Of a stretch of DNA of 10,391 nt, positions 3,643-7,517 are shown in pieces; within the stretch, counting starts at the first letter, position 1; every line of letters begins with the position of its first letter. The stretch is from UHGV virus genome UHGV-0229635; one strand, given 5' to 3'. This DNA is from a virus. Made by a program: the position numbers and the translations under genes. The notes under the pieces were generated by a model that was not told the origin of the DNA, did no database searches, and saw nothing but the letters and a program-made list of their open reading frames with translations.

Positions 3643-4611
3643 TTAGTAGGTTATTTTTGTTGCGAATACTTCGCCTTTTGCGATGGCTATTATGATATTT
3701 TTAGCAACATCTTCTGATGCGCCAACCTTGATAAGGTCAGCAAGTATTTTGTTATTTACTTCTCTCCGGTGAGCTTTATCCTTTGCTCTACGCTCTTCTT
3801 CGTCCTTGATTCTTTTTTCTTCTGCTATTCTGGCTTGCTCTTTTGCTTCAGCCTCGCGCCGGATTCGTTCTGCCTCCTCCTGTGCTTTTCGGCGTTCTGC
3901 TTCAATTGCTGCCTGCTTTTCTCTTTCAGCTCGTTCTGCTGCCTCTTTTGCTTCGCGCTGTGCTCGTTGCTCGGCTTCAATGCGTTCACGCTCTGCACGT
4001 TCCGCTGCGGCCTTAGCTTCTGCTTCTCGCCTTGCTGCTGCTTCAATTTCGGCTTTTGCCTTTGCTTCGGCTTCAGCTCTGGCTTTCTCTTCAGCTTCTC
4101 TTTTTAAGCGTTCTTCATGCTCTCGCTTTTCCTGCTCCGCTTTGAGTCTTGCCTCTTCTCTTTGGCGGTCAAATTCGCGATCCATCAAAATCGCTATTTC
4201 ATGGTCAGACTCAATTTGCTTTGCGAGAGCTTCAGCTGCTGCCTTAGCTTCTTCTTCGGCTTTAATCCGCGCCTGTTCTTCCTCATAATCAGTAAGAGGC
4301 TGGCGTGCCTTGGCTTTCAGCTCATCAAGGCGATCACGCACTGTCTTGCGGTTAGCATCAATTAGCTTTGGAATTTCCTTCAGTTCAGCAACAAGGTCTT
4401 TGCCAAGACCATCGAGATATGTTTTCGTCTGCGCAACTTTATACGCCAGAGAAGCGATCTCCTTTCTTCCCTTTGCCGTTGTGATATCAGGCACAAAGGA
4501 CATAACTTCACGTTCAACCTTTTGAAGGATTTCTTCAATCTGATCGGCAGACTGAAATACAGTCATTGCATTTGCTTTTTCAATAACAACTAAATCTGTT
4601 ACTTCACTCAT
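3643..4611 (-). CDS. 322-aa protein with a globular N-terminus and a long Ala/Glu/Lys/Arg-rich coiled-coil (KfrA/TolA-like low complexity)
   Basis: ORF-track frame; start reassigned to the ATG at 4611 (GGGGGA Shine-Dalgarno), because the track's TTG start at 4665 would place an intrinsic terminator hairpin inside the coding sequence. Confidence 0.7.
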   Translation of the reverse strand: MSEVTDLVVIEKANAMTVFQSADQIEEILQKVEREVMSFVPDITTAKGRKEIASLAYKVAQTKTYLDGLGKDLVAELKEIPKLIDANRKTVRDRLDELKAKARQPLTDYEEEQARIKAEEEAKAAAEALAKQIESDHEIAILMDREFDRQREEARLKAEQEKREHEERLKREAEEKARAEAEAKAKAEIEAAARREAEAKAAAERAERERIEAEQRAQREAKEAAERAEREKQAAIEAERRKAQEEAERIRREAEAKEQARIAEEKRIKDEEERRAKDKAHRREVNNKILADLIKVGASEDVAKNIIIAIAKGEVFATKITY

Positions 4612-4623
4612 ATTTCCCCCGTT

Positions 4624-4650
4624 AAAAAAATCGCCCTCACACTGGAGGGC
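4624..4650 (-). terminator. rho-independent terminator on the minus strand (stem GCCCTC/GAGGGC, loop CAGTGT, then T7 tract)
   Basis: Read directly: plus-strand gccctcacactggagggc preceded by aaaaaaa, giving a hairpin plus U-tract on the leftward transcript. Confidence 0.6.
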
Positions 4651-4754
4651 AAAGAAGATTTCCAATAATCAGAACAAGTCGGCTCCTGTTTAGTTACGAG
4701 CGACATTGCTCCGTGTATTCACTCGTTGGAATGAATGCACAGTGCTTATTTGTA

Positions 4755-6155: not shown

Positions 6156-6320
6156 ATGACAGATATTGTTAATCCCAAAACCAACCCACACGAAGCCGCT
6201 CAACAGATTATTGTTGAGCTTATCAGAGCCGGTAATCTTGCCCCTGGCATTGACGGAAAGCCAAGCACAGTTGTTTATGAAAAAATTCTTGATGAGATTA
6301 TCAGAATAAACAGTAAGTAA
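6156..6320 (+). CDS. 54-aa hypothetical protein (MTDIVNPKTNPHEAAQQIIVELIRAGNLAPGIDGK...), transcribed antisense to the pL operon
   Basis: ATG at 6156 with a GAAGGG Shine-Dalgarno-like sequence upstream; the ORF-track extension to 6051 has no start signals; convergent with the minus-strand gene ending at 6321. Confidence 0.5.
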   Translation: MTDIVNPKTNPHEAAQQIIVELIRAGNLAPGIDGKPSTVVYEKILDEIIRINSK

Positions 6321-6615
6321 TTAAGAGAACAAAATTTCGAATGCCTGGCGGATGGTTGCAACATCTTCGTTCGTCAGTTTTTTTCGTTCATCTGATGACA
6401 TCGATAACAATGCATTCCTCTCAATCAACGTAGCCAGCAGTTTAGATGCTATATTTTGAACGTCAGGGCTTAACTCTAAGAATTTATTTCGACTACGTTC
6501 GAGAATAAGTTGTGTCGCGGGTGTATCTTTTAACTCAGATATTTTTTTTGTCCAATACATCAAGCATTTCTTTCGTTTTCTCAATTAGTAATTGTTCAAT
6601 ACATGAAATATCCAT
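6321..6615 (-). pseudogene. gene immediately downstream of N, interrupted by a +1 frameshift in an A8 homopolymer (plus-strand T8 at 6542..6549); the intact product would be about 97 aa
   Basis: A 26-codon ORF (6535..6615, MDISCIEQLLIEKTKEMLDVLDKKNI*) starts at an ATG with GAGG 5 nt upstream, two nt after the N stop. Removing one A from the run reads straight into the 6321..6584 frame (..DKKISELKDTPATQ..). The downstream frame alone has only a TTG or ATG start without a Shine-Dalgarno. Confidence 0.5.
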
Positions 6616-6617
6616 AA

Positions 6618-6926
6618 TTACCTCGCCGTCAGTTGTTTTGATTTCCGATAGCCTGCCACGTAGATGGCTACGTTTGGCAGGCAAATGCTTCCATTGCATT
6701 CGTCGGTATTTTGGTTACGAATGTTGCCGAGTGATATTGCTTTTTCAGAAAGGCTTAAACGCTTTCTCGGTTCTTTCTGAACAGGTTCATCACTGTCTGT
6801 ACCGAAGATCGAATCGATGATGTTGCATATAGCATCACGCTCGATAGCCAGCTTTCTGCGCCGCTCATGACGGCGAGTTTTGGCATTTCCTGTAAATGTT
6901 GATTTCCCGTACACGATTACCGTCAT
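6618..6926 (-). CDS. N: N-type transcription antitermination protein, P22 gene 24 type (102 aa)
   Basis: N-terminal arginine-rich motif GNAKTRRHERRRKLAIERD matches the P22 N boxB-binding peptide; GAGGA Shine-Dalgarno; long 5' leader carrying nutL. Confidence 0.85.
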   Translation of the reverse strand: MTVIVYGKSTFTGNAKTRRHERRRKLAIERDAICNIIDSIFGTDSDEPVQKEPRKRLSLSEKAISLGNIRNQNTDECNGSICLPNVAIYVAGYRKSKQLTAR

Positions 6927-7105: not shown

Positions 7106-7139
7106 GCGCTTTGTCAGCGCCCCATCGAAGTTAAAGAGC
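7106..7139 (-). promoter_or_regulatory. nutL: nutL: boxA-like GCTCTTTAA (7131..7139) followed on the leftward transcript by boxB GCGCTGACAAAGCGC (7106..7120)
   Basis: boxB is identical to the P22 nutL boxB hairpin as I remember it; boxA matches the CGCTCTTTA consensus at 8 of 9; sits about 180 nt upstream of N on its leader. Confidence 0.75.
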
Positions 7140-7186: not shown

Positions 7187-7215
7187 ATAATGAACCAGTA
7201 GTTCGATATTATCAA
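7187..7215 (-). promoter_or_regulatory. candidate pL early leftward promoter (-35 TTGATA at 7215..7210, 17-nt spacer, -10 CATTAT at 7192..7187)
   Basis: Sigma70-like hexamers about 45 nt upstream of nutL boxA on the minus strand; overlapped by a 10-bp imperfect inverted repeat (7195..7204 / 7216..7225). No experimental support. Confidence 0.4.
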
Positions 7216-7493: not shown

Positions 7494-7517
7494 ACCCGCC
7501 GAAGCGGGTGTTTTTGG
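7494..7517. terminator. bidirectional intrinsic terminator (stem ACCCGC/GCGGGT, loop CGAA, T-tracts on both sides)
   Basis: Read directly: aaaacccgccgaagcgggtgttttt; the stem starts 9 nt after the stop of the 40-aa gene. Confidence 0.65.

Follow-up and report, generated by a model that had tools for sequence, protein, structure and literature searches.

The window, by which we mean the whole 10,391-nt stretch of DNA analyzed here (UHGV virus genome UHGV-0229635), raises the question of why a gene directly downstream of the antiterminator gene N, opened by a strong start codon, should stop after 26 codons just past a run of eight As (A8), with the remainder of its apparent coding sequence continuing in another frame. 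An earlier note made from the sequence had proposed a homopolymer sequencing error, a genuine inactivating slip in a prophage gene, or a slippery site giving phase-variable or programmed frameshifted expression. The features on which the question turns are the following.

6618..6926, minus strand: antiterminator N gene, 102 aa (Pfam N_peptide E = 2.8e-38; phrog_271 4.3e-39)
6621..6624, minus strand: Shine-Dalgarno GAGG, within the final N codons and 5 nt upstream of ATG6615
6620..6618, minus strand: TAA stop of N, 2 nt ahead of the split-gene start
6615..6613, minus strand: ATG start of the split gene, separated from GAGG by the 5-nt spacer TAATT
6535..6615, minus strand: 5' fragment, from the true start through 26 codons (MDISCIEQLLIEKTKEMLDVLDKKNI) to the premature TGA at 6537..6535
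6542..6549, minus strand: A8 run (plus-strand T8), ATAAAAA in intact alleles
6321..6541, minus strand: 3' fragment, ancestral codons 25-97 (ISELKDTPATQ...FEILFS) and stop, in the +1 frame
6156..6320, plus strand: convergent 54-aa ORF (MTDIVNPKTNPHEAAQQIIVELIRAGNLAPGIDGKPSTVVYEKILDEIIRINSK; phrog_27767 9.6e-10)

Each element of the start described in the earlier note, namely GAGG, a 5-nt spacer, and an ATG at 6615 coupled to the N stop, is present, and the frame it opens does end after 26 codons just beyond the A8 run. Predicted anti-Shine-Dalgarno pairing at ATG6615 has a duplex energy of -7.8 kcal/mol, beyond the window's 5th percentile, and GAGGTAATT-ATG was present throughout the 32 loci. 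The +1 frame is open across 6321..6584, with the ATA codon for Ile-25 (6542..6540) taking its first base from the A8 run, and it contains two potential starts, TTG 6584 and ATG 6560. Against a background median of -2.2 kcal/mol for predicted pairing in the window, TTG6584 reaches +0.4 kcal/mol and ATG6560 -2.7 kcal/mol, the latter with its pairing badly spaced at ~19-22 nt upstream. These energies bear out the further claim that the downstream frame has no credible start.

By itself the A8 run is ordinary (1 observed vs 3.7 expected in shuffles), and we take the frameshift as real because of the match to intact relatives rather than because of the run. The earlier note had predicted that deleting one A would give a coherent 97-aa protein, and the resulting product indeed matches proteins of Escherichia coli and E. 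albertii from end to end at 95-97% identity. A search of 5.8 billion proteins yielded 10 clusters of intact proteins, all of which carry DIKISE (Asp-Ile-Lys-Ile-Ser) at the site. The gene is present in 6 of 5,426 complete E. coli genomes, in five of which it is an uninterrupted 294-nt ORF. We collected 32 loci, with the window itself and repeated retrievals of E. coli 214-4 counted in. The 13 distinct, truly intact alleles (from 18 fetched loci) all have ATAAAAA within a continuous 97-codon ORF and read GAC ATA AAA ATA TCT at the site, whereas the window reads GAC AAA AAA AAT ATC TGA; the A8 allele thus measures 295 nt rather than 294 nt and has AAAAAAAA in place of ATAAAAA. Codons 1-22 of the 5' fragment are the same as in the intact orthologues. 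Among intact alleles, 11 changes are synonymous and 6 non-synonymous (dN/dS ~0.15, binomial p = 1.7e-4), a sign of purifying selection which indicates that the ancestral ORF is a real coding gene.

On sequence comparison, this gene is an Escherichia-restricted ORFan of 97 codons that was not previously described; it occurs in a group of Escherichia lambdoid prophages, where it lies, translationally coupled to N, at the start of the pL (early-left) operon. The ancestral protein had no significant match in Pfam, NCBIfam, or PADLOC and only a weak one in PHROGs (phrog_517, 'HTH', E = 1.4e-3). A HMMER search of 1.84 billion representatives returned the family itself and one spurious coiled-repeat protein, with no outside homologue; PDB sequences included no relative; the gene was absent from 50,697 phage genomes searched by tblastn; and a scan of a contig collection with one genome per species gave no match. 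AlphaFold2, run on the single sequence, predicted four helices with low confidence (pLDDT 61.5), and Foldseek of this model against viral structures returned nothing below E = 0.4. In the model, helix 1 spans H3-26, which would place the frameshift at its end and spare helices 2-4. Rfam and terminator scans found nothing relevant inside or near the gene.

Automated annotation treats the locus differently. PGAP calls the intact orthologues as 125-aa proteins (L002 1548..1925; L003 1503..1880) that start inside the N coding region, at a position corresponding to ATG 6699 of the window, which has no Shine-Dalgarno sequence and a pairing energy of +0.4 kcal/mol. The 97-codon start deserves much more credence, given its conserved GAGG and its position 2 nt past the N stop. 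For E. coli 214-4, PGAP records the frameshifted copy as an intact 79-aa hypothetical protein (the ATG6560 version), not as a pseudogene.

The surroundings of the gene are those of a lambdoid early-left region. Upstream of N lie a boxA-like element, GCTCTTTAA (7139..7131, minus strand), and a P22-type boxB hairpin, GCGCTGACAAAGCGC (7120..7106, minus strand), and N itself has an arginine-rich motif, GNAKTRRHERRRKLAIERD, which we take to be of the P22 type. The promoter-like TTGATA-17-CATTAT (7187..7215, minus strand) is probably pL. Between it and a 120-aa ORF downstream of the repressor gene is a GC-rich hairpin, ACCCGC-CGAA-GCGGGT (7494..7509), with T-runs on both strands, resembling a bidirectional terminator. 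In relatives such as L002, the same C-terminal third of N follows a phage-21-like N-terminal arm, pointing to a mosaic junction inside N. The end of the convergent 54-aa ORF abuts the split-gene stop with zero spacer (TAA/TTA). It has no Pfam, NCBIfam, or PADLOC match, and it is called beside the gene in every gene table, from intact and frameshifted loci alike, wherever the fetched locus reaches that far, so we regard it as part of the same cassette. The C-terminal third of N, the gene, and the 54-aa ORF appear to move as one cassette beneath differing N arms and immunity regions. In lambdoid phages, the N-proximal accessory slot often holds anti-restriction or exclusion functions. The slot from N to cIII/kil is packed with uncharacterized accessory genes, and these ORFs of the pL operon and immunity region have no Pfam match.

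3643..4665, minus strand: ORF, 340 aa
4755..5225, minus strand: ORF, 156 aa
5566..5904, minus strand: ORF, 112 aa
7664..8026, minus strand: ORF, 120 aa

We then consider how widely the A8 form occurs. Contigs bearing an exact match to the 79-aa product of the downstream frame (MYWTKKISELK...) number 192 across NCBI, ENA, and Logan (348 index blocks), and two IMG/VR prophage contigs, L005 and L009, proved in a pattern scan to have this A8 as well. Aligning the orthologous regions and counting As, the check suggested in the earlier note, showed ATAAAAA in a single ORF in the intact relatives and A8 in 12 independently fetched frameshifted loci, all 12 of which are identical to the window over the full 295-nt gene. 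Among these 12 are drafts of isolates, two chromosomes, metagenome contigs in SPAdes and MEGAHIT style, and prophages from IMG/VR, and they show at least four downstream arrangements (Ral or DUF7446; Gam/RecT/YqaJ or Rad52/SSB; with or without IS66). The window is colinear and gap-free with L013-L015, L021, and L022 (99.84% over 5,767 nt) and with L020. A8 carriers share 99.55-99.86% identity across 5.8-6.9 kb, and because they are so closely related, the lack of further decay in the 3' fragment is uninformative either way. The 192 contigs with the A8 allele compare with roughly 230 for all intact alleles combined, a frequency that one would not expect a purely deleterious lesion to reach, but compatible with neutrality or with over-sampled clones.

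A decaying prophage had been considered as the setting of the window region and was dropped, as full-length comparison showed no IS and colinearity with other prophages. Over 701 nt the window is 100% identical to the chromosome of E. coli 214-4, in which an IS66 element adjoins N. At that locus (L004, NZ_CP025840.1 4931838..4934263), an IS66-family ISEc43 lies between the immunity region and N, and the 214-4 prophage also has a second IS66-like element beyond Q and an ead/Ea22 gene annotated as frameshifted. Unlike the window, whose early region looks intact, 214-4 has a decaying copy of the prophage.

The A8 tract itself probably did not cause the frameshift. A metagenome contig, L011, carries ATAAAAAA, in which the extra base is present and the ancestral T is kept. 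Its alignment with the window is gap-free and shows 15 mismatches in 1,782 nt; L011 has 186G, 254T (A85V), and 288C in common with the A8 allele and lacks 68A and 241A. No intact protein bearing V85 was found in the protein collection. Given this contig and the missing V85-bearing intact protein, the most parsimonious order puts the insertion first and A8 afterwards, an order that rests on the single metagenome contig L011 at 3.6x coverage. In the first step, one A would have been inserted into the A5 run of ATAAAAA to give ATAAAAAA; in the second, T>A at position 68, together with A81T, would have given AAAAAAAA and with it the A8 tract. On these sequences, the homopolymer is probably a consequence of the frameshift, a by-product of the later T>A, rather than its cause. 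The suggestion of a slip in A8 therefore keeps its one extra A and loses A8 as the origin, the insertion having probably occurred in the A5 run, as the intact ATAAAAA and L011 indicate. The T>A change also turns ACA TAA of the downstream frame into ACA AAA, which removes the TAA and opens that frame back to ATG6560; this loss may be coincidental or may have been compensatory. Changes specific to the lineage number 3 non-synonymous vs 1 synonymous, which is compatible with relaxed constraint and does not differ significantly from the intact alleles (Fisher p = 0.27).

As these alignments have it, A8 is a derived +1 frameshift allele that is real and is inherited both vertically and horizontally, and the explanation that we consider likely is that it is a tolerated null (pseudogene) allele of a dispensable ORFan accessory gene. 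Ribosomes starting at the strong, N-coupled ATG6615 would halt after 26 codons, and the other 73 codons (25-97) are predicted to be left without a functional start; together these make it most likely that the allele is null. As lambda biology suggests, it would be tolerated both because the gene is a dispensable accessory and because N-modified RNA polymerase resists Rho, so that the premature stop should exert little polarity on downstream pL genes. The allele may have spread by hitch-hiking with the immunity/N module. Of the proposal of a genuine inactivating slip, the inactivation is thus supported, while the notion of a lesion private to one prophage gives way to a widespread inherited allele. 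Frameshift pseudogene alleles of lambdoid-prophage accessory genes are a fitting comparison: they likewise differ from intact orthologues by a single-base indel, are tolerated and inherited, and sit, as this gene does, in the variable pL slot beside N, which in other phages holds ral and similar genes. The A8 allele differs from the usual cases in being unusually widespread, with 192 contigs or about as many as all intact alleles together, and in its setting, which is not a single decaying prophage but several early regions that appear complete.

Against the null reading stands the view that the A8 allele is alive, making either a 79-aa re-initiation product or a low level of full-length protein via slippage, in a two-step course of 'break then patch'; we regard this as unlikely, though worth keeping in mind. 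Its first form, slightly less probable when taken alone, is a truncated yet functional protein: after termination at TGA 6537..6535, ribosomes would re-initiate ~23 nt upstream at ATG6560 and produce 79 aa, that is, MYWT followed by residues 23-97, lacking helix 1 only. Such short-range re-initiation after termination is established in bacteria and was reportedly described by Adhin and van Duin in 1990. Lying where predicted helix 1 ends, the frameshift would leave helices 2-4 intact, but the helix model is of low confidence. With ACA TAA in the downstream frame of L011 and ACA AAA in the A8 form, only the latter has an ORF that reaches ATG6560, and it is the A8 form that occurs on 192 contigs, ATAAAAAA having been encountered once. 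This gap in abundance is also explicable by hitch-hiking or sampling, however, and the other change on the A8 branch, A81T, is non-synonymous, as expected with relaxed constraint. ATG6560 moreover lacks a properly spaced Shine-Dalgarno sequence, and its -2.7 kcal/mol is about the background median.

Recoding, in which some 97-aa protein is made because transcriptional slippage on the A8/T8 tract drops one A from a fraction of the transcripts, or because of a +1 slip of tRNA-Lys on AAA AAA A, has a still smaller chance of being correct. A P-site tRNA-Lys slipping +1 from the second AAA would re-pair perfectly and read ATA TCT GAG, which is the ancestral frame. Eight-A runs seem to be productive slippage sites in some bacteria, and roughly one-tenth of human apoB's product is rescued at an A8 run (PMC1088944). 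In gfp reporters transcribed by E. coli RNA polymerase, +1 frameshifts were restored by 1-nt deletion at ~10% on T8, and the poly(A) runs that were tried, of which the longest mentioned had eight As, gave zero deletion rescue (PMC6260861); the split gene has poly(A) on its sense strand and requires a deletion, which is the combination without rescue. Its run of only 8 nt is also under the 9 nt from which selection against A/T runs is typically evident (PMC1088944).

The case for a shift by the ribosome meets similar objections. The A-site codon, AAT, is common and neither slow nor a stop; no Shine-Dalgarno-like element was seen in the sequence upstream of A8; the 92 nt downstream fold like shuffled sequence (z = 0.21); and a -1 shift gives merely KYLS-stop, or four codons. 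The slip site is missing from all intact relatives, which have a single ORF and a run interrupted by T. With the site not conserved in the family and no stimulators present, the proposal of a slippery site for programmed frameshifting found no support. Genes that are rescued by transcriptional slippage on A/T runs include Shigella mxiE (T9), Thermus thermophilus dnaX (A9), IS elements, and Citrobacter rodentium tssM (PMC1088944, PMC4256274). The locus resembles them in having two ORFs linked by an A tract, which a 1-nt change in the mRNA would fuse, and is unlike them in that its run is 8 nt long and sense poly(A), needs a deletion, and is not conserved in the family. Programmed ribosomal frameshifting is +1 in prfB and -1 in dnaX (A AAA AAG) and lambda G/G-T. 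A lysine-codon A-run is intrinsically shifty here as it is at those sites, but the split gene has no stop or rare A-site codon, no upstream Shine-Dalgarno-like element, and no downstream structure, and its frameshift is not conserved among orthologues.

A phase-variable (contingency) switch, in which replication slippage on A8 would turn the gene on and off within populations, is highly improbable. A8 is a mutable tract, and there is one in-frame A7 copy, on a Logan contig (L023, ERR10608951), but wherever the tract consists of A only it is A8, in all 12 independently fetched frameshifted loci and the window. The exact products of A10, A4, A5, and A11 tracts are absent from ~15 billion proteins, A9 being a length that would leave no detectable product. 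Compared with its nearest A8 relative, L015, the contig with the A7 copy has four 1-nt deletions in 7.3 kb, all in homopolymers, one of which splits a neighboring 156-aa gene.

L023 positions 522, 2068, 3726, and 7226: single-base deletions relative to L015

Because of the three other homopolymer deletions, we rejected this 'repaired' A7 allele (P0012/L023) as ancestor or revertant and treat it as a probable read error; since error-prone Logan contigs of this kind exist, homopolymer variants confined to them are untrustworthy. The claim of phase-variable expression thus loses its ground, with A8 constant in the fetched carriers and the sole A7 on an error-prone contig. Like the homopolymer contingency loci of Haemophilus and Neisseria, the gene has a homopolymer in its 5' coding part and is in an OFF frame; unlike them, it shows no tract-length polymorphism among A8 carriers and no reliable ON allele, and its tract is shorter than that of typical contingency switches.

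The PacBio RS II platform is prone to homopolymer indels. The carrier E. coli 214-4 was finished on it (PMC6446980), but the reading that A8 is a homopolymer assembly or sequencing error in the record, the true sequence being A7, is refuted to near certainty by the identical A8 in 192 contigs from many projects, sources, and assemblers, including short-read-style metagenome contigs, with no reliable A7 copy found.

These results matter chiefly for annotation, in which the locus ought to be entered as a 97-codon gene carried here as a frameshifted allele. They also illustrate that finding a homopolymer where a frame shifts does not necessarily mean that it caused the shift, as the tract here seems to have been completed later. 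If 'break then patch' were true, it would explain why the A8 allele is as common as all intact alleles combined. Under the tolerated-null explanation that we prefer, many strains would carry a natural null allele of the gene, which would be a convenient entry to its phenotype.
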